Part shown: piece by piece, positions 7,917-37,937 of the stretch
Layout of the letters: each line of letters opens with the position of its first letter
Position numbering within the stretch: the stretch's first letter is position 1
From: Actinomycetota bacterium
Lineage (GTDB): Bacteria > Actinomycetota > Thermoleophilia > Solirubrobacterales > Thermoleophilaceae
Direction: 5' to 3'
Assembly (NCBI GenBank): GCA_019246335.1
Contig: JAFAQQ010000058.1
Span: forward strand, 1 to 53,378
DNA length: 53,378 bases
Notes under the pieces: model-generated
What the model was told of the DNA's origin: nothing
Database searches by the model: none
Seen by the model: only the letters and a program-made list of their open reading frames with translations
Position numbers and translations under genes: made by a program

Positions 7917-9469
7917 GCGTCCCGCTGTCGGTCACGATCTTCCTGCCGCTCGCGGCCGGGCTCGCGGGCGCCGTGCTGCCGCGGGGATGGGCGCGCTGGA
8001 CCGTGCTCGCCGCGGCGCTCGCGGTGCTCGGGATCGCCATCTGGATGGTGGCGGACTACCCCGCGGGAGGCGCCGGCCTCCGTGACCTGACGAACCAGCA
8101 GTGGATCCCGGAGCTCGGCATCCGCTACTCGCTCGGGGTGGACGGCCTCAACGTCTTCCTCATCGCCCTCACCGCGCTGCTCTGGGTCGCGGCCACCGCG
8201 GCCGCCTGCTTCCGCGAGTGGGACCGCCCGCGGCTCTTCTACTTCCACATGGCGCTGGCCGAGACCGCCGTGCTCGGCGCGTTCTGCGCGCAGGACCTGG
8301 CGCTGTTCGTCTTCTTCTTCGACCTGATGCTGGTCCCGTTCTACTTCCTGATCGGCTCGTGGGGCGGCCGTCAGCGGGTGCGGGCCACGACCAAGCTCGT
8401 GATCTACACCCTCGTCGGCTCGCTGCTGATGCTCGCGGGCGCGGTGGCTCTCGGCGTGCTGGCGACGCCGGCGGGGGGACACGTGTCGTTCGCGCTGCCG
8501 GTGCTGGCCCACCGCCTCGTCGGGAAGGGCACGCAGGAGTGGATCTTCCTGCTGTTCGCCGCGGCGTTCCTCGTCAAGGCGCCGGCCTTCCCGTTCCACG
8601 GGTGGATGCCGGACGCCTACCGGGCGGCGCCGATCCCGGTGCTGGTCGTGTTCTCGGCCGTCCTGTCGAAGGTCGGGATGTACGGGTTCCTGCGGATCGT
8701 CGTGCCGCTGCTCCCGCAGGCGGCGCAGCATTACCAGACGCTGATGATCGTCATCGCGGTGGTGTCGATCCTGTACGGCTCGGCGCTGGCGTTCTCCCAG
8801 GACGATGCGCGGCTCGTCGTCGGCTACTCGTCCGTCGCCCAGCTCGGCTTCATCCTGCTCGGGATCTTCGCTCTCGACGTCGAGGGCAAGGGGGCGCAGG
8901 GCGCGGTGCTGCAGATGGTCAACCACGGGCTCGTCGTGGCCCCCCTGTTCCTCATCATCTGGGCGCTTTCGGCGCGGGCGGGGGGTTCGGAGTCGCTCGG
9001 CAGGATGGGAGGCGTCGCGTTCCGCGCACCCGCGCTCGCGGGCTTGTTCCTGATCGTGGCCCTGGCGACGCTCGCCATGCCCGGCTCCGCGAACTTCGTC
9101 GGTGAGCTTCTGATCCTGTTCGGGACGTTCTCCACCAAGCTCGCCTTCGGCCTGGTCGCAAGCGCGGGGGTGGCCCTGGCCGCGGTCTACATGATCCGGA
9201 TGTACCAGCGGTCGATGCACAACCGCGTGGGCGCGGCCGTCGAATCGCGTGACGTCACGCGCGGCGAGCTGGTCACGATCGCGCCGCTTGTGGCGGTGAT
9301 CGTCGCGCTCGGCGTCTATCCGCACTTCGTCGTGGCGCGCACGGAGCGGTCGACGGTGCGTCAGGAGCGGCCCGCGGCGTCACTCGAGCACGCAAGCGAG
9401 ACCGGGGGGCAGGCGTCCGTGCCGCCCGCAGGCACGGCCGAGCTCGGGCCGCTCGGGAGGGCGCCGTGA
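7913..9469 (+). CDS. nuoM: NADH-quinone oxidoreductase subunit M
   Basis: GTG at 7913 overlaps the nuoL stop. Contains FPFHGWMPDAYRAAPIPVLVVFSAVLSKVGMYGFLR. The upstream part of the 7670..9469 ORF is an off-frame extension. Confidence 0.92.
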   Translation: MSVPLSVTIFLPLAAGLAGAVLPRGWARWTVLAAALAVLGIAIWMVADYPAGGAGLRDLTNQQWIPELGIRYSLGVDGLNVFLIALTALLWVAATAAACFREWDRPRLFYFHMALAETAVLGAFCAQDLALFVFFFDLMLVPFYFLIGSWGGRQRVRATTKLVIYTLVGSLLMLAGAVALGVLATPAGGHVSFALPVLAHRLVGKGTQEWIFLLFAAAFLVKAPAFPFHGWMPDAYRAAPIPVLVVFSAVLSKVGMYGFLRIVVPLLPQAAQHYQTLMIVIAVVSILYGSALAFSQDDARLVVGYSSVAQLGFILLGIFALDVEGKGAQGAVLQMVNHGLVVAPLFLIIWALSARAGGSESLGRMGGVAFRAPALAGLFLIVALATLAMPGSANFVGELLILFGTFSTKLAFGLVASAGVALAAVYMIRMYQRSMHNRVGAAVESRDVTRGELVTIAPLVAVIVALGVYPHFVVARTERSTVRQERPAASLEHASETGGQASVPPAGTAELGPLGRAP

Positions 9470-11034
9470 TCGGGGCCGTCCACTCGCAGCTGGGGCCCTT
9501 CCACGCGCCGCACGTGGACTGGAAGGGAATGTCGCCGCTCCTGTCCGTGCTCGGCGGCTCGGCGGCGGTCCTGATCGCCGGCCTCTTCCCGGGCCGGCGC
9601 ACCCAGCGGGTGGTGGTCCCGGTCCTCGCCATCGCGGCGCTCATCGCGGCGATCGGCCTCACGGTGTGGATCTGGGAGCCCGGCGGCGTACGGCCGATCG
9701 TGGCGGGCGCGCTGTCGGTGGACACGCTGGCGCTCGGTGTCTCCGTCCTGTTCTACGTGGCGGGCATCGCGACGATCCTGCTTTCGCTTCGCTCGGCCGT
9801 CGTGCGCGAGTGCGGCGCGGGCGAGTACGCCTCGCTCCTGCTCGGATCGATCGGCGGGATGGTCCTGCTGGCGGGCGCCCAGAACCTCGTGACGATCTTC
9901 ATCGGGCTCGAGCTGCTGTCGATTCCGCTGTACATCCTCTGCGGCAGCCGGGTCCGGCAGGAGCACTCGCTCGAGGCGGGGCTCAAGTACCTGATCGTCG
10001 GCTCCGTCGGATCGGCCACGCTCCTCTACGGACTGGCGCTCCTCTACGGCGCGACCGGGTCCACCTCCCTCTCCGTGATCGGGCACGCGGTCGGCACGCG
10101 CGTTCCGCTCGACGACCCGCTCGTCCTGACCGGGGTCGCCCTGGCTGCCACCGGGCTGGCCTTCAAGGCGTCAATCGCGCCATTCCACACCTGGACGCCC
10201 GACGTGTACCAGGGGGCGCCGACGCCGGTCACGACGTTCATGGCCGTCGCCACCAAGGCCGCGGCGTTCGCGATCCTGCTCCGGCTGTTCGACGAGGGCC
10301 TCATCTCGGACCGGACGAACTGGGGCCCTGCGCTCGCCGCGCTCGCGGTGGCGTCGATCGTGATCGGGAACGCCGGGGCGATCGGGCAGCGGTCGATGAA
10401 GCGCCTGCTCGCGTGGTCGGGCGTGGCTCAGGCGGGCTACATCCTGGCCGGGGTCGTGGTCGGCACCCGCCTGGGGATCCAGACGAGCGCGTTCTACCTG
10501 GCGATCTACCTCCCCATGAACGTGGCGGCGTTCGCCGTGGTGATCGCGCGGATGCGCGTCTCCGAGCGAGGCGACGACATGGCCGCCCTCGAAGGCCTCG
10601 GTCGATCGAGTCCGTGGCTCGCCTGGCCGATGACGATCGCCATGCTCGCGCTGGCCGGCTTCCCGGCCACGGCCGGGTTCATCGGAAAGTTCTATTTGAT
10701 CGACGCCACGGTCGCGGGGGGCTACGCCTGGCTCGGAGTGGCGATCGTGATCGGCTCGATGATCTCGCTCGTGTACTACCTGCGGGTGATCGCGGTGATG
10801 TGGATGTCGCCCAGCGAGGTCGAGGTGCCCGCCCCGGCCCCGGCGCGCGCGTCGCCGAGCCGCCGCGTCCGGTCCGTCGCGGGCTGGTCCCCCGAGGCGG
10901 ACGTCCGCGCGCAGCCGGAGGTGGCGTTCGTGGCCATCGCCTGCGCGGCGGCGACGGTCTTCTTCGGGATCGTGCCGGAGCCCCTGCTCCACCTGGCACG
11001 CGAGGTGGGCAGCGCGATCAGCTCGGCGCTCTAG
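9466..11034 (+). CDS. nuoN: NADH-quinone oxidoreductase subunit N
   Basis: GTGA overlap with nuoM. Contains PFHTWTPDVYQGAPTPVTTFMAVATKAAAF. Confidence 0.94.
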   Translation: MIGAVHSQLGPFHAPHVDWKGMSPLLSVLGGSAAVLIAGLFPGRRTQRVVVPVLAIAALIAAIGLTVWIWEPGGVRPIVAGALSVDTLALGVSVLFYVAGIATILLSLRSAVVRECGAGEYASLLLGSIGGMVLLAGAQNLVTIFIGLELLSIPLYILCGSRVRQEHSLEAGLKYLIVGSVGSATLLYGLALLYGATGSTSLSVIGHAVGTRVPLDDPLVLTGVALAATGLAFKASIAPFHTWTPDVYQGAPTPVTTFMAVATKAAAFAILLRLFDEGLISDRTNWGPALAALAVASIVIGNAGAIGQRSMKRLLAWSGVAQAGYILAGVVVGTRLGIQTSAFYLAIYLPMNVAAFAVVIARMRVSERGDDMAALEGLGRSSPWLAWPMTIAMLALAGFPATAGFIGKFYLIDATVAGGYAWLGVAIVIGSMISLVYYLRVIAVMWMSPSEVEVPAPAPARASPSRRVRSVAGWSPEADVRAQPEVAFVAIACAAATVFFGIVPEPLLHLAREVGSAISSAL

Positions 11035-28009: not shown

Positions 28010-28635
28010 GCGTCGAGGGCGACGGCCGTCCGGCGGGCCTCCTGGTCGACTTCGGCGGGGTCCTGACCACGAATGTCTTCGAGTCCTTCCGCGCGTTCTG
28101 CGCGGCAGAGGGGCTCGACCCGGACGCCGTCAGGTCGCTGTTCCGCGAGCGCGGAGAGGGCCTGGACCTCCTGCGCCAGCTGGAGAAGGGCGAGATCGAG
28201 GTGCCGGACTTCGAGCGGCGGTTCGCCCCCCTGCTCGGCGTTCAGCGGGCGGATGGGATGGTCGATCGGCTGTTCGCGGGCGTCCAGCCCGACGAGAGGA
28301 TGATCGCGGCGGTGCGCGCCGTGCGCGACATCGGGACACCCACCGGGCTCATCTCGAACTCCTGGGGCGGGGTGACCTACGACACCGCCCTGATCGAGGA
28401 GCTCTTCGACGGCGTCGTGATCTCAGGCGAGGTCGGGCTCCACAAGCCCGATCCGGAAATCTTTCGCCTCGGAGCCGAGCGGATCGGCGTGCCGGCCGAC
28501 CGCTGCGTGTTCGTCGACGACCTGCGCGAGAACTGCGAGGGCGCAGAGTCGGTGGGGATGACCGCGATCCTCCACCGCGGAGCCGACGGGACGCTTCCCG
28601 AGCTTGGGCGGCTGTTCGGCGTCCAGTTGCGGTAG
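28006..28635 (+). CDS. HAD-superfamily hydrolase
   Basis: GTGA overlap with the upstream gene. Motif I LLVDFGGVLT, ISNSWG and VFVDD. Confidence 0.85.
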   Translation: MSVEGDGRPAGLLVDFGGVLTTNVFESFRAFCAAEGLDPDAVRSLFRERGEGLDLLRQLEKGEIEVPDFERRFAPLLGVQRADGMVDRLFAGVQPDERMIAAVRAVRDIGTPTGLISNSWGGVTYDTALIEELFDGVVISGEVGLHKPDPEIFRLGAERIGVPADRCVFVDDLRENCEGAESVGMTAILHRGADGTLPELGRLFGVQLR

Positions 28636-28642
28636 GACCCGG

Positions 28643-29242
28643 TTGCGCCGACGGGTCGTGGCTGTCGCGCTCGGCCTTTCGGTCGCCGCGACCGCCGGGT
28701 GCGGCCAGGGCCGCCCGCCCCTTCCGAGACCGCTCCTCTTCGGTGAGGGCGCGCTCTACCGGCCCGCACCGTACGGACCGCGCGTCGCTAGCGCTCGCAC
28801 GATCGGGCGCCTTCGATGCGAGGCGGCGGCCCCTCCGGCGCGGTTCCTCGCCCACGTCGAGGTGATCGTCGACGGCCGCGTGGCGATCGTCCCGGCGGGT
28901 ATCGGGGTGGCGCCGCCCCAGGTCCGCCGCGGGGCCTACGTGGTCCGCGGCCGATGCGAATACCCGATTCGCACGCATGAGCCGACCGGCCTCCTCGAGG
29001 TCGCAAGCTCGCGCCGGATCACGCTCGGCGAGCTGTTCGCGGTCTGGCAACAGCCGCTCACGAGGCAGAGGCTGCTCGAATTCGCGCCGCGGCGCGGGTC
29101 GATGGTGCGCGCGTACGTCGGCCGCGCGCGGTGGCCCGGCGATCCCCGGGAGATCGTCCTTCGCCGTCACCGCGCCGTGACCCTCGAGCTGGGCCGGTTC
29201 GTGCCCCCGCGCCCGCGGTACGCCTTCCCGCGCGGGATTTAG
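28643..29242 (+). CDS. Putative lipoprotein, unknown function
   Basis: TTG at 28643 gives (M)RRRVVAVALGLSVAATAGC, a lipobox-like signal. The track start at 28604 would overlap the HAD gene. Confidence 0.5.
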   Translation: MRRRVVAVALGLSVAATAGCGQGRPPLPRPLLFGEGALYRPAPYGPRVASARTIGRLRCEAAAPPARFLAHVEVIVDGRVAIVPAGIGVAPPQVRRGAYVVRGRCEYPIRTHEPTGLLEVASSRRITLGELFAVWQQPLTRQRLLEFAPRRGSMVRAYVGRARWPGDPREIVLRRHRAVTLELGRFVPPRPRYAFPRGI

Positions 29243-29276
29243 GAGTTCCACGGCGGCCGGCGTTACGCTGGCGTCG

Positions 29277-29924
29277 ATGCGCGCGCGACGCCGCACATCG
29301 ATCGCAGCCGCGACCCTCACCGCCGTGCTCGCCGCAGTGCCGCTCGCGCGCGCCGACTCCGACCCCGCGAGCGACGTCCTCCCCGTCCAGAACGTCTTCG
29401 TCCCCTACCAGCCGCAGGTCTCCCAGTCGCTCCAGCAGACGCTCCGAGCGGAGACCGCCGCGGCGGCGAAGTCCGGGTTCCCGATAAAGGTCGCGATCGT
29501 CGCCACGGCCCAGGACCTCGGTGGGGTGCCGGACTTCTTCGGAAAGCCGCAGCCCTACGCGCGCTACCTCGGCTCCGAGATCAGCTTCAGCAAGCCGCAG
29601 CCGCTGCTCGTGGTGATGCCATCGGGACTCGGGACCTATCAGGTGCCGCCGAAGGCGGCCGCGGTGGCCCGGGGCATGACGCCCGGGGCGGGCCCGGACG
29701 GGATGGCCACCACCGCGGTGAAGACGATCGAGCAGATGGCGACCGCAGCGGGCCACAAGATCGGCAGCTACAAGGCCGGCGGGAGCGGGGGTGGAAAGTC
29801 GTCGACCGCGCTGATCTTCGCCGGGCCGATCGTGCTGCTCGTGATCGCCCTCGTCGTCTTCAGCTACCGCAGGATGGGGCAGGAGGAGGAGGAGCTCGAG
29901 GAGCTCCGCTCGGGGTCCGGCTGA
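29277..29924 (+). CDS. Exported protein with C-terminal TM anchor and acidic tail, unknown function
   Basis: Signal peptide ..AVPLARA|DSD, a C-terminal TM segment (ALIFAGPIVLLVIALVVF), then QEEEELEEL. Confidence 0.6.
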   Translation: MRARRRTSIAAATLTAVLAAVPLARADSDPASDVLPVQNVFVPYQPQVSQSLQQTLRAETAAAAKSGFPIKVAIVATAQDLGGVPDFFGKPQPYARYLGSEISFSKPQPLLVVMPSGLGTYQVPPKAAAVARGMTPGAGPDGMATTAVKTIEQMATAAGHKIGSYKAGGSGGGKSSTALIFAGPIVLLVIALVVFSYRRMGQEEEELEELRSGSG

Positions 29925-30190: not shown

Positions 30191-31603
30191 TCAGGTGTTG
30201 ACCGCGGACAGCAACCAGAGTCCGAGGCTGGTGAAGCCCACCATCACGCACAACATCCAGTACTGCGAGCGAGCCGCGTCGCGCACTCGCGAGTAGACCG
30301 CGAGGGCGCGATCGTGCGCGAGGGTCAGCCCGGCGACGTGCCCACACACGAGTGCCGCCACCTGCACGTACCAGATTCCCGCCGCGGATATCACCTTGAA
30401 GTTCACCGTCGCGCTCGCGGTCCCGAAGATGTTTGCGCCGTTTCCGAGCGGGTCGGAGATGAGGTATCCGATCGCCTGGCCCTGATAGGCGAGCAACGAG
30501 AAGTAGTGCGCTACTGCGTATGCGAAGGCGATCGGGATGAGGGTGTGGGCAAAGCGATGCGCCAGCTCCGCCTGGCGGTGGTGGTGATCGACGGTCACCA
30601 TTCCGCGTACCCCGGTGGCGTACACCCCGCCGACGAGCAGAACGCAGAACAGAAGCCCGACCGTCGACGCCAGCTCGACCGAGACCGTCGTGCTGAATCC
30701 AAGGTCGCGGAAGAGCTTCGCGAGGTCGCCGCCGAGCGAGCGCCAGACGGGCCCGTTCGAGAGACCGTCGAACGTCGTAGTCCCGATGGCGGCGCACAAG
30801 AGGACGACGGTGCCGGGAATGATCTGGAGAGGCGGAGCTCCCGAAAGCGGACGGCGCAGGTACACCGCGCCGTCGGCGTGCCGCTCGAGCGGCGAGATCC
30901 GTGAGTACAGGTTGAACAGGCACGAGAACGCGTCGCCGCGGCGGGTCCAGGTCTCGATGCCGAACGCGGACATGCCCGCGAGCTGGACGGCTGCGTAGCC
31001 GATCGAGAGCCAGGCGAGCGTCGAGGGGACGTCCTTATCTGCGTATGCCAGCTCCAGCCACGCGAAGCCGATCACGCCTGCGACGGCCGGCCATTGGCCG
31101 AGCCACGCTGGATACTCGCGGCTTCGAATCGGACGGCCCCCAAGCTTGCGCCATGTCGACGAGACGGCGAGCGCGAACGAGCGCCAGGGGTTGAAGGCGC
31201 GAAAGACGTCCCCGAAGACCGCGCTCAGGATCACGGTGCCCACCCAGAAATGGACGTAGATGAACGTCGGCTCGAGGTTCTGGAGCGGCTGCGAGGTTCC
31301 GGCGAATCCGCAGTAGACGAGAAACACGAAGCATCCGATCCCAAGCAGCCCGCATGCAGCGACGACTGCACGCGGCATCGCGAACAAGCGCCTCTTGGGG
31401 GAGTGCTGGAGCCGCGGTTCGCGCCAGAGCGACCCGAGAGCCACGAACGAGATGATCAGAACGATCGCCGCCGACCAGCCGAACAGCCACGACGGGATCG
31501 GTAGGTCCGTTCGCCCGACGAGTCCGTGCGCGGACGCCGCCGCCGGCCCGGCCAGTACGGCCAGCCCGGCGGCGAACAGTCCGAGTGCGAACCTGCGCAC
31601 CAT
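30191..31603 (-). CDS. Polytopic membrane protein (470 aa) with cleavable-looking signal peptide, unknown family
   Basis: The ATG lies 8 nt after the ycnI-like stop. N-terminus ..LAGPAAASA|HGLVGRTD. About 10 or more TM segments and a His cluster VDHHHRQAELAHRFAH. Confidence 0.8.
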   Translation of the reverse strand: MVRRFALGLFAAGLAVLAGPAAASAHGLVGRTDLPIPSWLFGWSAAIVLIISFVALGSLWREPRLQHSPKRRLFAMPRAVVAACGLLGIGCFVFLVYCGFAGTSQPLQNLEPTFIYVHFWVGTVILSAVFGDVFRAFNPWRSFALAVSSTWRKLGGRPIRSREYPAWLGQWPAVAGVIGFAWLELAYADKDVPSTLAWLSIGYAAVQLAGMSAFGIETWTRRGDAFSCLFNLYSRISPLERHADGAVYLRRPLSGAPPLQIIPGTVVLLCAAIGTTTFDGLSNGPVWRSLGGDLAKLFRDLGFSTTVSVELASTVGLLFCVLLVGGVYATGVRGMVTVDHHHRQAELAHRFAHTLIPIAFAYAVAHYFSLLAYQGQAIGYLISDPLGNGANIFGTASATVNFKVISAAGIWYVQVAALVCGHVAGLTLAHDRALAVYSRVRDAARSQYWMLCVMVGFTSLGLWLLSAVNT

Positions 31604-31611
31604 CGCTGCTG

Positions 31612-32322
31612 TCAGCCTGCGGCTCCCCGCGACCGCGGCCGCATGAGTGCGGCGAGGCCGATGAGGAGGCCGACAATCGCGACCACGAGCGCAGCGATTC
31701 CAAGCCCCTTGCTTGCGCCCTTGGTGCTCGACTTGGCGGACGTCGGGTTGGCCGCGAGCAGCTTGTTTACCTTCGCTGCCGCGTCCCCGGGGCCCGCCTC
31801 GTCGCCCGCGACGTCGATGATCGCCCCGCCCTTGGGCGCGACCGCGATCGTCGGGGCCGGCTCATTCGCACTTGGCGGGCCAATCCAGCGAACCACCTTG
31901 CCGTTGCTGTAGGTCTGGAGCGTCTTGAACGTGAGCGTTCCGGTGGCGTCATCCGGCATCGCGGTGGCGATCGCGAAGTTCTGGAAGCCCCCCGGCGGGA
32001 TCTTCCCGCCGCTCCAGATGATCTCCGAGACCTCCTCGGTGACCTTGCCCTGGTCCGTCTGGACCGGCTTCGCGAGCTTGCGAGTCAGGACCTTCGCGTT
32101 CCAGCCGGGGATCGGCTGAGTCGCCACGTCCAGGAAGCCTGGAGGAACGGCCACGTCGACCTTTGTCGTGTCGGCGTTGGTCTCCTCGTTCGGCACCCGA
32201 ATGTTGAACGTCACGTTTGCGCCCGCCGGCACGTCGTTCGGATGGAAGCTGACGTGCGCCTGGGCACCCGCTGGCACCGCCATCGTCGTCAGCGCCGCGG
32301 CAAGTACGGCTCTCTTCTTCAT
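31612..32322 (-). CDS. YcnI-family (DUF1775) copper-binding protein with C-terminal TM anchor
   Basis: ATG at 32322 is preceded by AAGGAG. Signal ..VPAGAQA|HVSFHPNDVPAG.. is typical of YcnI. The longer 357-aa ORF in the track is an R/P-rich extension. Confidence 0.85.
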   Translation of the reverse strand: MKKRAVLAAALTTMAVPAGAQAHVSFHPNDVPAGANVTFNIRVPNEETNADTTKVDVAVPPGFLDVATQPIPGWNAKVLTRKLAKPVQTDQGKVTEEVSEIIWSGGKIPPGGFQNFAIATAMPDDATGTLTFKTLQTYSNGKVVRWIGPPSANEPAPTIAVAPKGGAIIDVAGDEAGPGDAAAKVNKLLAANPTSAKSSTKGASKGLGIAALVVAIVGLLIGLAALMRPRSRGAAG

Positions 32323-32342
32323 GTTCTGTCTCCTTTGAAGAG

Positions 32343-32699
32343 TCATCGAATTGCCGGCCCGCCTATGCACACGGAGCCGGCGCGTGCAACGGCGCGCGAC
32401 GGTGGGGCGCGCCCGGCGAGAGCGGTGGCGAGGAGCAGGCCCCCCCGCGGGACCAGGGCCATCGGCGGGCGGCGACGCGTCTTGGCAAGCGTGAGCCCTC
32501 GCCGGATCCTGCGACGCCGCAGCGCGGCCCTCACAAGCAGGTCTTCGCCGGGGAATCGCCCTACGAGCAGGAGCAGCGCGAGAAGGGCGACCGGGACTCC
32601 GTACAGCAGGCCCACCCCAGCCTGCGCGACCAGGAGGCCGCACGCCAGGGGGACCACGGCTGCCATGAACGCGGCGAGGCGCCACCGTGCGGCCGTCAT
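32343..32699 (-). CDS. Small membrane protein (118 aa), paralogous to the C-terminal half of the 207-aa protein; not resolved in ORF track
   Basis: The ATG at 32699 overlaps the CopCD stop (ATGA). Two TM segments, an Arg-rich stretch, then ALAGRAPPSR. GC3 is high. It fills an otherwise 373-nt gap in a tightly packed operon. Confidence 0.6.
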   Translation of the reverse strand: MTAARWRLAAFMAAVVPLACGLLVAQAGVGLLYGVPVALLALLLLVGRFPGEDLLVRAALRRRRIRRGLTLAKTRRRPPMALVPRGGLLLATALAGRAPPSRAVARAGSVCIGGPAIR

Positions 32700-34501
32700 C
32701 GGATCGGCACCTTCACCGTCGTCGTGTACTCGTCGAACTTCGTCACGAGCACGGTCACCGTCAGCTGCCACGTGCCAGGCACGCTGAGCAGGGCTCCGGG
32801 CACGATGTAATGCCCGGGCCCTGCCTTGCTCGCGCCCTGGTTGAGGGGACCGATCCGCTTCGAAGGAAGGCTCTCCGCGATGTCGACCTCCTGCGCACGG
32901 GTGAACTGCGTGCCGTCCTTCGGGTTGAGCAGGTAGAGGTGGATTTCGTTCGATCCGACCTTCGCCGGGTCCACCGTCATCTGGAGCTGCGCCGGTCCTA
33001 CGTTGGTCGTCTTGTTCACCGGACCTGTCTGGGCGACGATCGACGGCGCGTACATGACGAGCGCAGCGGTGACGCCAAGGATGCCGAAGACCAGCATCAC
33101 CTCGCCGCGAAGCGCCCGACGGAGCAGCAGGCCACCGCGGCCGGGTGCGGCGCCCTCCGCCGCCAACCGCTTCATGAGTGGGACGCTGCGCTGCCGGTTG
33201 TAGGCAGCGAGAGGGATCAGCCCGAGTAGGACGATCGACTTGATCAGGACCGCACGCCCGAACGCCGTGTGGATGAGGTTGCCCGGATCGCGGACGTAGA
33301 TGTAGGCCTGGATCACTCCGGTCACCGCGATCGCGCCGACAGCGGCGAGGGCGAGGGGCGAGAAGCGGCCGAGCACTGCCCCGAGCAGTCGGGTCCGATC
33401 CGCCGGCTCGAGCGCGCGCGTGGCTCGAGGTACAGCGAACAGCAGGAGCGCAAGGCCGCCCGCCCACACGCTCATCGCGACGACGTGGATGACGTCGACC
33501 GGGAAGAGCACCGCCTCCGGGCTCTGCGTGGACGCGTGGCCGGCGAGCGCGGGCATCAGCACGAGGTAGACGAGCGGCGCCACCACCAAGAGGCCAACCG
33601 GACCGGGGCCTCGCCTCATCGCCAGCCCCGTCGCTCCGAGCTCGGCCGGCCGCAGGACGGGCGCGCGCTCACGGCGCGGCGAAAGCAGCGGAATCGCGAA
33701 CGCGGCCGCGACCGCCCATGCGGCCACGCCGAGGCCGAACGACCGGCCGAACCTCGTCCCTAGGACCTCGCGGACGATATTTGGCTTCAGGGCCGCCCAG
33801 CCCGAGATGCCCCCGGCGAACGCGCCCTCCAGTACCACGAGCGCCGCGGCGGTCACAGCGCCCGCGATCGCGACGACGATGACGACGGTCCGCAGCCGTC
33901 GCAGGAAGGCCTCGGATGCACCGGCCCATTCCGGGCTTCCGCCGCCCGTCGCCCGAAGCGCGGGCAGCCAGGTCCAGAGCATGAACATCAGAGCGCCAAC
34001 CGCGACCGCGATCGATGCGTATTGCAAGCCGCGGGCGATCCCGAACGCGATCTCCGTTGGCGGCCCGGTCTTCGAGCCCTTGGTTAGCTGGGCGACGGTC
34101 TGACCCGGTGCCGTACCGGGCTTCCCGATCGAGAACACAAACCCGCTGGACACCACGTGCCCATCCGCGGAGATCACGCGGTAGGTCGCCGTGTACGTTC
34201 CCTCCGCCAGATGCGGCTTGAGGTGAACGCCGAGCTCCGACCCAGTGCTGTTCGGGTGGAAGGCGTCGCCCTGGTCGACCCGCTTGCCGGAGGAGTCGAA
34301 CACGCGCACGGCGCCGAAGTTCCCCTCGACCGTCTGGTCGAACTTGAACACGACGGCCGAGGGCTCCCGCTTGACGACGGCGCCTCGAGTCGGCGACGTC
34401 GATTGGAGCTGCGCATGGGCCCACGCCGCCGGCGCGCCGACGAGCAACGCCGCCGCTGCCGCGACGGCAGCGGCGGCGGCGCGTTGGCGTAGCGCCGTCA
34501 C
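32696..34501 (-). CDS. CopC-CopD fusion protein with C-terminal YtkA/FixH-like domain (YcnJ-like)
   Basis: The GTG at 34501 overlaps the upstream stop. Signal ..APAAWA|HAQLQSTSP (CopC N-terminus), 8 or more TM segments of CopD type, and a C-terminal beta domain (..GPGHYIVPGALLSVPGTWQLTVTV..). Confidence 0.88.
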   Translation of the reverse strand: MTALRQRAAAAAVAAAAALLVGAPAAWAHAQLQSTSPTRGAVVKREPSAVVFKFDQTVEGNFGAVRVFDSSGKRVDQGDAFHPNSTGSELGVHLKPHLAEGTYTATYRVISADGHVVSSGFVFSIGKPGTAPGQTVAQLTKGSKTGPPTEIAFGIARGLQYASIAVAVGALMFMLWTWLPALRATGGGSPEWAGASEAFLRRLRTVVIVVAIAGAVTAAALVVLEGAFAGGISGWAALKPNIVREVLGTRFGRSFGLGVAAWAVAAAFAIPLLSPRRERAPVLRPAELGATGLAMRRGPGPVGLLVVAPLVYLVLMPALAGHASTQSPEAVLFPVDVIHVVAMSVWAGGLALLLFAVPRATRALEPADRTRLLGAVLGRFSPLALAAVGAIAVTGVIQAYIYVRDPGNLIHTAFGRAVLIKSIVLLGLIPLAAYNRQRSVPLMKRLAAEGAAPGRGGLLLRRALRGEVMLVFGILGVTAALVMYAPSIVAQTGPVNKTTNVGPAQLQMTVDPAKVGSNEIHLYLLNPKDGTQFTRAQEVDIAESLPSKRIGPLNQGASKAGPGHYIVPGALLSVPGTWQLTVTVLVTKFDEYTTTVKVPIR

Positions 34502-35175
34502 CAGGCCTCCGCGGCCCCCCTCGGTGTCGCCTCACGTTCATCAGCCGTGCGGCGGCGCCGGATGAACCAGACGAGGGCGATCCCCAGCAGCGCGATCACT
34601 ATCAACGCGACGATCGCGGCGGCCGGGAACCCCTTCGGCTGCCCCGCCCAGAACAGCGTTCCGTTGATGGCAGCCGGCTTTCCGCCGACGCTCACCGGGA
34701 TCGTGTAGTCGAAGATCTTGGTCTTCTTGTGCTTGTCCTTCACCTGTGACGGGATGGTGTGGGCCATCCAGTGCATGCGATGGTCATGCCACACAAAACG
34801 TCCGGACTGGTCGATGACCTGCCACTGGGGCGCCCCCTTACCCGTCACGCTCTTCGGCACCGGCGTCGTGGCGAAGCGATCCTGGTTCAGGTAGACCGCG
34901 GGACTGTTCTTGTTCTGCTCGACCGTCCCGTTCGGGAGGAGTTCGGCATACGGGTAGCCGTTGTAGTCCCGGATGACGACCGGCTTCCCGGTCTTGTTGA
35001 CGAGCTCGAGCTGGTTGTCATAGCCCAGTACCTGTACCTGCAGGCCCTGGATGTTCGGGAAGACGCCGTTGACCACCGACCGGTAGTCGGGATTCCCTTC
35101 GTGTGCTGCAGCTGGTTGGGCAGACGCCGCGACCAGCACGGCCGCGATTGCGACTGCCCGTCGAAGACGCGACAT
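34498..35175 (-). CDS. Exported His/Met-motif protein (225 aa) with C-terminal TM anchor, unknown family
   Basis: ATG at 35175 is preceded by GAAGGAG. Signal ..ASAQPAAA|HEGNPDY. Internal WHDHRMHWMAH motif and a C-terminal TM segment (AAAIVALIVIALLGIALVWFI). Confidence 0.8.
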   Translation of the reverse strand: MSRLRRAVAIAAVLVAASAQPAAAHEGNPDYRSVVNGVFPNIQGLQVQVLGYDNQLELVNKTGKPVVIRDYNGYPYAELLPNGTVEQNKNSPAVYLNQDRFATTPVPKSVTGKGAPQWQVIDQSGRFVWHDHRMHWMAHTIPSQVKDKHKKTKIFDYTIPVSVGGKPAAINGTLFWAGQPKGFPAAAIVALIVIALLGIALVWFIRRRRTADEREATPRGAAEAW

Positions 35176-35231
35176 CGCTGCTCCTTCGGGTCGGGGCTTC
35201 ACGCAGCGCCCGGTCCCTAGGGGCCGGCGCG

Positions 35232-35855
35232 CTACGTCGCTATCAGCTTGCGCACGGGGGGTGCCCGCCCTGCCGCAGATGCAGCGAGCGGGTCGAGCAA
35301 GCGGATGGGCGCGGTGGGCTGCCGCTTCCCTGCCGGCTGGTCGCGGCGGGTCGGAGCGGAGCGGACACGGGCTCGCGATGCGAACCGGACGACCGCGTGG
35401 GCACCACGCATGAGCAGCGTCATGGCAAACGCCACGGTCATCGCAACGGGCACGCTCCAGAGCCCGCCGTGCCCGAAAACGCCCGCCAGGCTCGGTGGGT
35501 GGCCGGCGGCGAAGGCCCCCTCGAGGAGCTCCTGGCAGATGTAGATGAGGACGAGCCCCAGCGCCGTCACGAGCCAGAGTGCCGCCACCGGACGCGCGGC
35601 ACCCGAACTCTCCTGCGTTCGCCATGCACGCGCAACGCGCGTCAGAAACAGACCGAATGCAACAGCGGTCAGCGCGACGATCCACGGAGTCACCCAATTG
35701 AGATAGGCATGGCCCTGCCTGGATAGCTGGCCGTCGGCATGTGACCCGTAGGCCAGGTAATAACGCGCCTGATGGACGACCAGAGCCGCGGCGGGCATCA
35801 GCGCTGCGGCACCGAGCCGGCGTAACGCGGTACGTGTCGCGGATCCGCGACTCAT
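35232..35855 (-). CDS. Membrane protein (207 aa), unknown family
   Basis: About 4 TM segments, His-containing loops (HQARYYLAYGSHADG.., GHPPSLAGVFGHGG) and a C-terminal Arg-rich tail ending AAGRAPPVRKLIAT. Confidence 0.7.
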   Translation of the reverse strand: MSRGSATRTALRRLGAAALMPAAALVVHQARYYLAYGSHADGQLSRQGHAYLNWVTPWIVALTAVAFGLFLTRVARAWRTQESSGAARPVAALWLVTALGLVLIYICQELLEGAFAAGHPPSLAGVFGHGGLWSVPVAMTVAFAMTLLMRGAHAVVRFASRARVRSAPTRRDQPAGKRQPTAPIRLLDPLAASAAGRAPPVRKLIAT

Positions 35856-35882: not shown

Positions 35883-37814
35883 TTACGACGCCGCGCCGAC
35901 CGACCCGCCGCCCGGCGCCGGCGCCACGCGCGGCGACGCCTGCGGGCGCCGGCGCCGCGGGGGCGGCAGCGACCCGATCTCCCGCGAGATGCTCCGCAGC
36001 CCCCAGGTCAGCAGGGCGATCACCGCGAGCCCGATCGCGAGCACGATCAGGTACGCGAACGTCGTGAGGAACGGCGACACGCCCGGCTTCTGCTCCCGCT
36101 GCAGAAGCTTCTTGTCCCGTTCGAACGGCCGGGTGAACTGCGCCGGCGCCGGGATGCCCTTGACGGGGATCGCCGAGTCGGCGGGCATGTAGAGCGGCAG
36201 GCCGAGCACCTCACGGCCGCGCGCCAGACGCAGGGTCGACTTCCACTTCGGACCGGAGACGGGGATCGCCTGCGTCGTCCTGTACTTCCCGGGCCCGATC
36301 TCCTTGAGACGATCGACGACCGCGCCGTGGCCCTGCCATGCGGTCACCGTGAGCCAGTACTTGTGCTTTGCCGCGTTCGCCGGATGCAGCTGGATCGTGG
36401 CCGACACCTTGCGCGTCGACCCCGAGCTCGGGATGTTGCGCAGCGCGACCGTCGCCGACGGCGGGTTCGACGGCACCGGCATCGGTACGCACCAGACGAC
36501 CAGGCCCACCACCGCGGCCGCCGCCAGCGGAATCGCCCAGCGCCCGTAGCGCTCGGTGCCGGTCTCGGGGGTGATCGAACGGCCGATGAAGCCGCCGAGG
36601 ACGCCTCCTGCCAGGCCCGCGACGATCGCGCACGGAATGGCCTCCGGCAGCAGCGAGGCGGGCCACGGGTTGTAGCCCCAGACATGCGACCAGCCGAACT
36701 CGCCCGCGAAGCCCAGGGTCCCGATCAGAAGGCCCGACACCGCCCCGAGCGCGATCGGCCGCCGCCGGCCGAAGCGCAGCCCCACGAGCTCGACGCACAG
36801 GCCCTCCACGATGTAGAGCGGGAAGTGCGGCGTGGTCTGGCCGAGGATCGGCCCGACCATCAGGGCCAGGAAGCCGCGAAGCCCGATGAAGAAAACGACG
36901 CCGGCCAGCGCGCCCCCGCGCCCGAGCCGCACGCGGGCGGTGACGAGCGCGATGCCCGCGGCGAGCGCCAGCAGCACCGGCTGCCAGACGAGCCGGAACT
37001 GCGGCACTCCGAAGTCGAACTCGCCCTGGAAGGTGGACATGCCCACGAGCAGGGAGCCCGCGAGGCTGAGGTCACGAAAGCGCTGTAGCGGCGTCTTGGC
37101 GACGGGCGAATGGCCGGTTTCCTTGGCGCCCTCGACCTGCAGCACCCAGAGCCCGATGATCGACAGGCTCGCGCCGCCGAAGAGCAGCAGGTGCGTCGGG
37201 CCCCAGAGCGTCACGTCCTGGCCGAAGAGCCGGTGCCAGATGTCGTCGAGCGGGAAGGCCAGCAGCGAGACCGCGGAACAGACGAGGATCAGGATCCCGC
37301 CGAGCGGGGCCCACCATTGCGTCGCGAAGTTCTTCGCGACGTTGCTCGGCCGCTCCCGCGGCAGCGCGAGGGTCAGGGCGCCGCAGACGAAGACGCCGAA
37401 GAGCCCGACGAGGATGAAGTAGTGGGCCGGGTTGGCGAGCGGCCCGGGGTCGCGGCCGTTGTCGAGGTGGAGGGAGATGTCCCAGTACATCCCGAAGACC
37501 GCTACAAGCAGCGAGGCCCCGAGGACCGTCGCCGGGATCGAAGCCCAGCTCGGAAGGCCGGTGAGACGCTCCGCGACGCCGGCGAGCCGGCCGAGCCACT
37601 GGATACGGCCGCTGCGATGGGCGTTGATGACCCAGAGGAGCACCAGCGTCGCGATGGTCGCGCCGGCGGTGGCGCCGATGACCTGGCCGATCCCCGCCCC
37701 GGCCGCGGGCGGCTGGCCGGCCGCGAGCGCGCCGGCGGGAGTGGCGAGGCTCGCCGCTGCGGCGGCCACCGCCCCTACAAGAGCTCGGCTTGCCAGGCGC
37801 CCTGCTCGCTTCAT
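35883..37814 (-). CDS. Large polytopic membrane protein (643 aa) with C-terminal extracytoplasmic beta domain and terminal TM, unknown family
   Basis: ATG at 37814 is preceded by AGGGGG about 10 nt upstream. The ATG at 37853 is the alternative track start. Contains YWDISLHLDNGRDPGP and DDIWHRLFGQDVTLWGPTH loops. Confidence 0.8.
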   Translation of the reverse strand: MKRAGRLASRALVGAVAAAAASLATPAGALAAGQPPAAGAGIGQVIGATAGATIATLVLLWVINAHRSGRIQWLGRLAGVAERLTGLPSWASIPATVLGASLLVAVFGMYWDISLHLDNGRDPGPLANPAHYFILVGLFGVFVCGALTLALPRERPSNVAKNFATQWWAPLGGILILVCSAVSLLAFPLDDIWHRLFGQDVTLWGPTHLLLFGGASLSIIGLWVLQVEGAKETGHSPVAKTPLQRFRDLSLAGSLLVGMSTFQGEFDFGVPQFRLVWQPVLLALAAGIALVTARVRLGRGGALAGVVFFIGLRGFLALMVGPILGQTTPHFPLYIVEGLCVELVGLRFGRRRPIALGAVSGLLIGTLGFAGEFGWSHVWGYNPWPASLLPEAIPCAIVAGLAGGVLGGFIGRSITPETGTERYGRWAIPLAAAAVVGLVVWCVPMPVPSNPPSATVALRNIPSSGSTRKVSATIQLHPANAAKHKYWLTVTAWQGHGAVVDRLKEIGPGKYRTTQAIPVSGPKWKSTLRLARGREVLGLPLYMPADSAIPVKGIPAPAQFTRPFERDKKLLQREQKPGVSPFLTTFAYLIVLAIGLAVIALLTWGLRSISREIGSLPPPRRRRPQASPRVAPAPGGGSVGAAS

Positions 37815-37937
37815 CTGCACTCGCCCCCTGTTGTTCGCCTTGCTACGTGACATGCGCGCCGTTGCGGGTCGGGGCCCTTGGATCGTCGCGGGTCGCGCGC
37901 CGCCGACACCGCCGCAGCCCGCACGCCGACCGGCCCA

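Follow-up and report, generated by a model that had tools for sequence, protein, structure and literature searches.

Predicted N-terminal histidines in a putative copper operon of Thermoleophilia and two candidate copper-protein families, P225 and P470

Does removal of the signal peptide expose a metal-binding histidine in four neighbouring proteins of a single bacterial locus? The question is raised by a 53,378-nucleotide (nt) stretch, contig JAFAQQ010000058.1 (assembly GCA_019246335.1), which we refer to in full as the window. At positions 30191–35175 of its minus strand it carries genes for a YcnI-like protein, a YcnJ-like CopC-CopD fusion and two further proteins of 225 and 470 amino acids (aa), P225 and P470. 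N-terminal His chelates are established in lytic polysaccharide monooxygenases (LPMOs), CopC, YcnI and PmoB (PMC10952591, PMC8424229). Our preferred reading, which we hold to be probable, is that the minus-strand interval 30191–35855 is a copper acquisition and trafficking operon, in which a YcnI/YcnJ-type system is accompanied by a second module consisting of P207 (a 207-aa membrane protein), P225 (or a small cupredoxin) and P470, the last being a permease or metallation factor. P225 and P470 are candidate copper-protein families, and the prediction that they use histidine-brace chemistry is partly supported.

Four predicted N-terminal histidines

Each of four consecutive minus-strand genes encodes a signal-peptide-like N-terminus that ends in A-x-A and is followed at once by His. 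We checked the coordinates codon by codon and found all four N-termini exactly as an earlier note on this DNA had quoted them. In the YcnI-like DUF1775 protein (236 aa, 31612–32322, with a C-terminal transmembrane anchor) MKKRAVLAAALTTMAVPAGAQA is followed by HVSFHP, the codon of His23 being 32256–32254. In the CopC-CopD fusion (601 aa, 32696–34501, with a GTG start that overlaps the P225 stop codon) ...LLVGAPAAWA precedes HAQLQSTSP (His29, codon 34417–34415). In P225 (34498–35175; signal peptide 35175–35104) MSRLRRAVAIAAVLVAASAQPAAA precedes HEGNPDY (His25, codon 35103–35101), and in P470 (30191–31603, starting 8 nt past the YcnI stop) MVRRFALGLFAAGLAVLAGPAAASA precedes HGLVGRTD (His26, codon 31528–31526). 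In each leader a basic n-region and an uncharged hydrophobic core come before the predicted cleavage site, which has Ala at both –3 and –1. The cleavage positions are predicted, by the –3/–1 rule and by homology.

We estimated roughly how often such an arrangement would occur by chance by applying a crude signal-peptide heuristic to the window and 80 related loci. It returned 721 signal-peptide-like open reading frames (ORFs), 116 of them with any candidate cleavage site followed by His; about 90 of these 116 were assigned by eye to the four families. Among unrelated signal-peptide-like ORFs the proportion with His after the site is ~4%, so that four of four neighbouring genes are far from chance expectation (~3e–6, a rough figure). 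Conservation of the His in homologues is a stronger argument than this estimate.

For the YcnI-like and CopC-CopD proteins the argument from homology is direct. The 236-aa protein matches Pfam DUF1775 (PF07987, E-value 5.1e–43, residues 23–161), and its His23 aligns with residue 1 of crystallised mature Bacillus subtilis YcnI (7ME6). The Cu(II) site of the B. subtilis protein is formed by His27, Glu50 and Trp137 (PMC8424229); the Glu and Trp ligands are kept in the alignment to 7ME6 (RVPNEE versus KVPSEK, VVRW versus IVEW). The 601-aa protein contains Pfam CopC (PF04234, residues 29–125) and CopD (PF05425, residues 375–481) domains, and its NCBIfam CopC and CopD matches lie under the equivalog cut-offs. 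His29 aligns with residue 1 of the CopC domain of B. subtilis YcnJ (9C14) and of 5ICU, and the D-x-H ligands of CopC are conserved (SADGH, D113 and H115). Beyond the CopD domain extend ~110 extracytoplasmic residues, and Pfam YtkA has no match in the protein. In B. subtilis the YcnI and YcnJ sites bind Cu(II) and exchange copper in vitro, and the bacterium needs them when copper is limiting (PMC12362106, PMC13344008). By homology, we take it as established that the YcnI-like and CopC proteins are exported and cut before His and that this N-terminal His binds Cu(II), as part of a mono-histidine brace for YcnI and of a histidine brace for CopC. The earlier note had claimed as much for these two proteins, and this half of the finding is already textbook.

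P225 is laid out as a signal peptide, the predicted His1, a beta-rich ectodomain, a C-terminal transmembrane helix, an RRRR stretch and a terminal EAW. We found 402 homologues, and those with a named organism are all from Thermoleophilia. His occupies the predicted +1 position in all 120 retrieved homologues that were aligned, ahead of a conserved x-G-N-P-x-[YF]-x-S; Ala stands at –1 in 118 of the 120, and the residue at –3 is small or aliphatic. The invariance of the +1 His expected from the earlier note holds across these 120 sequences. Moreover, WHDHRxHW is present in 120/120 homologues (WHDHRMHWM in P225 itself, 34791–34765, minus strand), and its invariant H130, H132 and H135 are candidate second ligands. 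An N-terminal-His copper site in P225 is plausible on these grounds.

The AlphaFold2 model of P225 (mean predicted local distance difference test score, pLDDT, 91) shows the beta-rich ectodomain and the C-terminal helix. P225 has no Pfam or NCBIfam match and no credible match in a PDB sequence search, and a Foldseek search of the model against the PDB gave no fold relative (best E-value 0.2). Profile matches to de novo designed symmetric beta-trefoils covered 33 residues only and were discounted as a low-complexity or repeat artefact. The family C-terminus (34498–34510 here) is a near-invariant Glu-Ala-Trp-COOH on the cytoplasmic side, reached through the transmembrane helix, RRRR and a tail of variable length; some members carry the JGI label 'MYXO-CTERM'.

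The P470 family and its genomic neighbourhood

P470 represents a family of at least 7969 homologues (4522 clusters at 50% identity) that spans Actinomycetota, Pseudomonadota and haloarchaea and is without annotation. P470 has no Pfam or NCBIfam match, and PDB sequence searches, a profile search included, returned nothing. Its AlphaFold2 model (mean pLDDT 94.2, predicted TM-score 0.90) has no fold relative by Foldseek against the PDB (best E-value 0.047, TM-score ~0.1); in the PDB fold searches with the P225 and P470 models taken together, TM-scores were ~0.1–0.2 and no E-value was below 0.04. We tried P470 as a CopD homologue and rejected it (hhalign probability 0.5%, with the signal peptides alone aligned). 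Long homologues of P470 are fused to BNR/Sortilin and TPR domains, which is uninformative.

An alignment of 101 P470 sequences, down to 31% identity, identified the following residues as at least 90% conserved: A25, H26, D33, L34, P35, P37, E184, D279, H366, Q376, H422, H430, Q447 and M454. The first six belong to the signal-peptide boundary and to the tail behind it (H26-GLVGR-T-D33-L-P-I-P), in which 12 residues lead from His26 to the first transmembrane helix; the peptide HGLVGRTDLPIPSW is a candidate for a Cu-binding comparison. The predicted topology is N-out with 10 transmembrane helices, and the positive-inside rule fits every loop (Lys plus Arg loop counts in the alignment). On this topology E184, D279, H366 and Q376 would lie in the outer half of the membrane, H422 and M454 in its middle, and H430 and Q447 in its inner half.

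We next considered the gene contexts of P470. A genome scan with a 21-sequence alignment returned Thermoleophilia loci only; plasmid records and metagenome contigs supplied the contexts of distant lineages. Among the 80 Thermoleophilia loci, most have P470 within ~4 kb of P225, usually as its direct neighbour and often together with CopC-CopD and YcnI, and the arrangements include P470-P225-CopCD-YcnI, P207-P225-CopCD-YcnI-P470 and P470-P225 alone. In 13 of the 80, none of which contains P225, the gene directly upstream of P470 encodes a small membrane-anchored protein with an HxHGYD motif (at ~9450–9990 in loci L002, L003, L013, L025, L036, L044, L051, L060, L065, L066, L070, L073 and L075). 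This partner has ~120–165 aa and an invariant H-x-H-G-Y-D, and its gene often shares a stop/start overlap with that of P470. Counting all loci, it stands directly upstream of P470 homologues in four lineages, Proteobacteria, Mycobacteriales and Pseudonocardia among them (L081, 5430–5831; L083, 5533–5922; L085, 6480–6971; L086, 6558–6974), and in Mycobacteriales and Pseudonocardia it is a lipoprotein. Its match to the Pfam Cu-oxidase_2 cupredoxin domain is weak and just under threshold (E-value 6e–4). Because 'VLGYDNQLEL' of P225 resembles 'HLHGYDIKLEL' of the small partner and the two proteins exclude each other, we tried them as homologues; hhalign probabilities of 0.6–3% over 13–17 columns do not support this.

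Elsewhere the copper-related neighbours of P470 homologues include multicopper oxidases, a PCuAC chaperone and a galactose-oxidase-like protein; heavy-metal P-type ATPases of unspecified metal also occur near P470 homologues. On a Mycobacterium dioxanotrophicus plasmid (NZ_CP020812, 4475–12548; L085) a P470 homologue lies beside the CAB operon of a copper membrane monooxygenase, the gene order being sigC, a His-rich 353-aa protein, the small HxHGYD lipoprotein, P470, a zf-HC2 anti-sigma factor and the CAB operon. The copper link of P470 is circumstantial, yet consistent across three phyla.

Two recurrent neighbours deserve mention beside these contexts. A proteobacterial Kelch beta-propeller of ~350–377 aa recurs next to the pair of small partner and P470 (L081, 55–1188; L083, 7411–8463; L095, 3307–4389; L096, 3352–4428), with a TctC gene beside it in three of the four loci (L081, L095 and L096); it may be a galactose-oxidase-like copper enzyme. 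In Haloarcula and Haloferax (L090, 5358–7119; L094, 5420–7074) the place of the cupredoxin-like partner ahead of P470 is taken by a small membrane protein that bears a C2H2-like CxxC...HxxxxH motif, and heavy-metal P-type ATPases adjoin.

In the window, where G+C is ~70% and the nearest homologues of the proteins are from Thermoleophilaceae, Solirubrobacterales and Conexibacter, the genes form a tightly packed minus-strand row in the order 656-aa protein, P207, P225, CopC-CopD, YcnI and P470. The P225, CopC-CopD and YcnI genes each have a Shine-Dalgarno-like AAGGAG or GGAGG ahead of the chosen start. The sole sizeable intergenic gap (349–373 nt, non-coding) separates copCD from ycnI (32323–32695) and holds no Rfam family and no promoter-like or terminator-like site. 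Over the whole cluster, the Rfam scan gave just one sub-threshold mir-23 match, attributed to chance, and promoter and terminator scans gave nothing above the shuffled background.

Among the conserved genes of the module that of P207 (35232–35855) comes first. Neither Pfam nor NCBIfam matches the protein; its conserved motifs are VHQLRY, GHAYL, QELLEG, GHP and a C-terminal GRAPP, with His and Glu residues that look invariant. Since its homologues are found directly upstream of either the P225 gene or the small HxHGYD gene (15 of the 80 loci), P207 is probably a third component of the module. Another 27 nt upstream lies the gene of a 656-aa polytopic membrane protein (35883–37853), which has a signal-peptide-like start (…PAGALA followed by AGQ) and, at its C-terminus, an extracytoplasmic domain. 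Pfam and NCBIfam gave no match to this protein; it occurs in none of the 80 related loci, and it was rejected as a homologue of P470 or CopC-CopD after no similarity was detected. Downstream of P470, on the plus strand (28604–29924), convergent genes encode two small exported proteins of 212 and 215 aa; they have no Pfam match and recur near P470 in at least nine related loci. Another predicted N-terminal-His family may be represented by two homologous secreted proteins of 551–578 aa, with a signal peptide followed by H-[PA]-E-R, encoded several kb from P470 in two of the loci (L036, 1919–3652; L060, 5040–6692; both minus strand); the one scanned, from L036, has no Pfam match.

A copper-handling module and its alternatives

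We suggest that P470 would be the membrane component of a second copper-handling module, acting most likely as a permease or in the insertion of copper into enzymes. It would always be paired with a membrane-tethered extracytoplasmic partner, which is P225 here and the small HxHGYD cupredoxin-like protein elsewhere. The outside tail of P470, H-G-x-x-x-R-x-D-L-P-x-P, would place its conserved His and Asp near the outer-leaflet Glu184, Asp279 and His366. The tail His and D33 may thus form an entry site with E184, D279 and H366, from which a conserved ladder would lead through the membrane by way of His422/Met454 and then His430/Gln447. Where P470 bears a signal peptide, cleavage would make the His residue 1 and an amine-plus-imidazole chelate possible; relatives that lack the signal peptide could use the imidazole alone. 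P225 may capture or store copper through His1 and WHDHRMHWM and exchange it with P470, CopC or YcnI.

The P470 histidine is not always residue 1. Among 354 family members with a locatable N-terminal motif, it is at +1 of a signal-peptide-like leader in 293; 37 have fewer than 14 residues before the His, and a handful have no His. One of the short cases is a mis-called start, as the upstream DNA encodes MPRCWLRLVGVLSHLLGFVCTSSALA followed by HGF, a true signal peptide that ends in ALA before the His. Other cases are not explained in this way. The homologues of Mycobacteriales and Pseudonocardia, from RefSeq-annotated plasmids of M. dioxanotrophicus, M. gallinarum, Mycolicibacterium rufum and Pseudonocardia, have no signal peptide, and their His is residue 5–22 (starts VTEVVLAHG, ...AILAHG, VTPRVDILAHG and VTVPAHG). 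On three of the four plasmids, all but that of M. gallinarum, the P470 start overlaps the stop of the upstream gene, and the in-frame DNA 5' of P470, checked for M. dioxanotrophicus and Pseudonocardia, encodes in both an Arg-rich sequence that is not signal-peptide-like. Because these members have no signal peptide, the conserved His cannot rely on a free alpha-amine everywhere, and because it is internal in them, the family as a whole cannot be defined by a strict N-terminal histidine brace. What characterises the family, judging from the alignments, is a predicted extracytoplasmic His in the tail; residue 1 is its majority state, predicted for the protein of the window, and not universal.

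These clades weigh against our preferred reading, and several other points join them. Members P0253, P0255 and P0257 lack the P470 His, and the Haloferax/Haloarcula clade has no tail His altogether. Residues 22–31 of the P470 model, His26 included, have pLDDT below 50. The only distant homologue found for P225, a 385-aa Pseudonocardia protein encoded two genes upstream of a P470 homologue (hhalign probability 94%, E-value 9e–8), has neither His1 nor the His cluster, which suggests that the putative metal site of P225 is an elaboration confined to the Thermoleophilia sequences and does not belong to the fold as such. No homology was detectable between P225 and the small cupredoxin-like protein. 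Some P470 contexts contain no metal genes, and in others CbtA, a CDF transporter, an 'iron transporter' and a DyP peroxidase hint at metals other than copper. Finally, NCBI labels several Thermoleophilaceae homologues of P470 'fenitrothion hydrolase'. Of the N-terminal-His copper sites that the earlier note had proposed for P225 and P470, the first keeps its 120/120 conservation of His and WHDHRxHW but loses both in the Pseudonocardia relative; the second keeps a His26 that is at least 90% conserved across phyla and at +1 in most members, whereas its invariance at that position fails in the clades where the His is internal or absent.

The hydrolase label brings up an alternative that we regard as unlikely, namely that P470 is an integral-membrane metalloenzyme, a hydrolase or oxidoreductase, with a catalytic His/Asp/Glu metal site to which its neighbours supply the metal. 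The conserved His, Asp and Glu residues might together serve as an active site, the fold resembles no known transporter, and hydrolases occur in some contexts (a tannase/feruloyl esterase with a stop/start overlap, amidohydrolases). However, the origin of the label (FedA) could not be traced in the available papers and no NCBIfam model stands behind it, the conserved residues are distributed over both leaflets instead of forming a one-sided cluster, and the tight coupling to extracytoplasmic metal-binding partners and copper chaperones suits trafficking better. We give a similarly small chance to the module of P470 and P225 or the small partner handling Ni, Co, Fe or Zn, with its adjacency to ycnI and copCD incidental or a matter of cross-talk. 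N-terminal His chelates bind Ni in NikM and in nickel superoxide dismutase. They also bind it in DUF4198 and Ang-1 (PMC12537917). The other-metal neighbours listed above, of which the DyP peroxidase recalls EfeUOB-type iron systems, and the P-type ATPases of unspecified metal would fit such a role. But the neighbours that are explicitly metal-specific are copper proteins in three phyla (YcnI/CopCD, PCuAC, multicopper oxidases and the Cu monooxygenase), and the small partner is cupredoxin-like. In addition, His/Met-rich motifs such as WHDHRMHWM are typical of copper sites.

It seems to us quite improbable that the His after cleavage in P225 and P470 binds no metal and is kept for structure or processing, for instance in a tail docking motif. 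In P470 the tail residues R31, D33, L34, P35 and P37 are as conserved as the His, which suggests that the tail is a structural element, and the relatives without a signal peptide retain 'LAHG' without a free amine. Against this, His after a cleavage site is rare in unrelated ORFs of the same lineage, and four of four in a copper operon are hard to explain otherwise; both families have further conserved His and Met residues, and in every characterised case His1 chelates whatever the fold (PMC12537917, PMC10952591). We retain the copper acquisition and trafficking operon as the preferred reading.

Relation to known systems and significance

Among the closest known counterparts of the locus is the ycnKJI copper-uptake system of B. 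subtilis. The 236- and 601-aa proteins of the window share with it the N-terminal His, the ligands, the YcnI anchor and the fused CopD, and P225 is laid out as B. subtilis YcnI is (signal peptide, His1, beta ectodomain, C-terminal transmembrane helix). The differences are that no YcnK-type regulator is seen in the cluster, that the YtkA part of the CopC-CopD-YtkA protein YcnJ is not detected by Pfam in the fusion, and that P207, P225 and P470 have no counterpart in B. subtilis. We detected no sequence or fold similarity of P225 and P470 to YcnI, CopC or CopD.

Compared with the canonical histidine brace of LPMOs, CopC and the CuB site of PmoB, a P470 homologue does adjoin a Cu membrane monooxygenase operon, but no oxygenase context was found at the cluster of the window, and the P470 His is not N-terminal in one large clade. 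The closest functional analogues of a His on a short N-terminal tail are NikM and CbiM. In these S-components of energy-coupling factor (ECF) Ni/Co transporters, the N-terminal amine and His2 fold back into the helix bundle and form the metal site. P470 does not belong with them, as it has no CbiM match in Pfam or NCBIfam and its cluster contains no CbiN, CbiQ or CbiO (ECF) genes; unlike NikM and CbiM, its signal-peptide-less relatives cannot use a terminal amine.

Looking for His directly behind a signal peptide was published as a discovery method in 2025 (PMC12537917); it brought up DUF4198, DUF6702 and the Ang-1/Ang-2 domains, which are fused to HupE/UreJ-2 permeases. In Ang domains His1 is 100% conserved, and a dissociation constant (Kd) for copper of ~60–75 nM was estimated by thermal-shift assay (Franco Cairo et al. 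2025, PMC12537917). In these 'anglerases' signal-peptide cleavage exposes His1 at the outside of a multi-pass metal permease, much as it is predicted to do in P470. Their His1 sits on a folded Ig-like domain joined to a PF13795 membrane domain, whereas P470 presents a bare 12-residue tail; with no Pfam match and no folded N-terminal domain, P470 falls outside this group. The earlier note suggested that an outward-facing histidine brace on a transporter-like multi-pass protein is a combination not yet described. This was overstated, because the CopC-CopD fusion in the same operon and the Ang-HupE/UreJ-2 proteins (PMC12537917) precede it; with NikM/CbiM they are partial precedents of the architecture. 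What appears to be new are the P225 and P470 families, neither of which has a Pfam or NCBIfam model or a relative in the PDB, together with the His of P470 on a bare tail without a folded domain and the interchangeable partner proteins.

A bolder proposal, which we advance tentatively and consider doubtful as it stands, is that P470 is a new broad family of copper permeases or cuproenzyme-metallation factors. Its tail His would capture copper and plug into the helix bundle as in NikM, and a His/Met ladder would pass the metal on. Interchangeable membrane-tethered partners, the Thermoleophilia-specific P225 or the small HxHGYD cupredoxin, would feed it, and it would serve Cu monooxygenases, multicopper oxidases and galactose-oxidase-like proteins.

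Bacterial copper import, and the loading of copper onto membrane and extracytoplasmic enzymes, are poorly understood, and CopD/YcnJ are among very few candidate importers. If our reading is correct, P470, a widespread unannotated family that travels with copper genes, would be a concrete candidate for the missing step, and the short list of N-terminal-His metal proteins would gain two new folds from P470 and its two alternative partners. The result also shows that a search keyed to His behind a signal peptide still brings unrecognised families to light.

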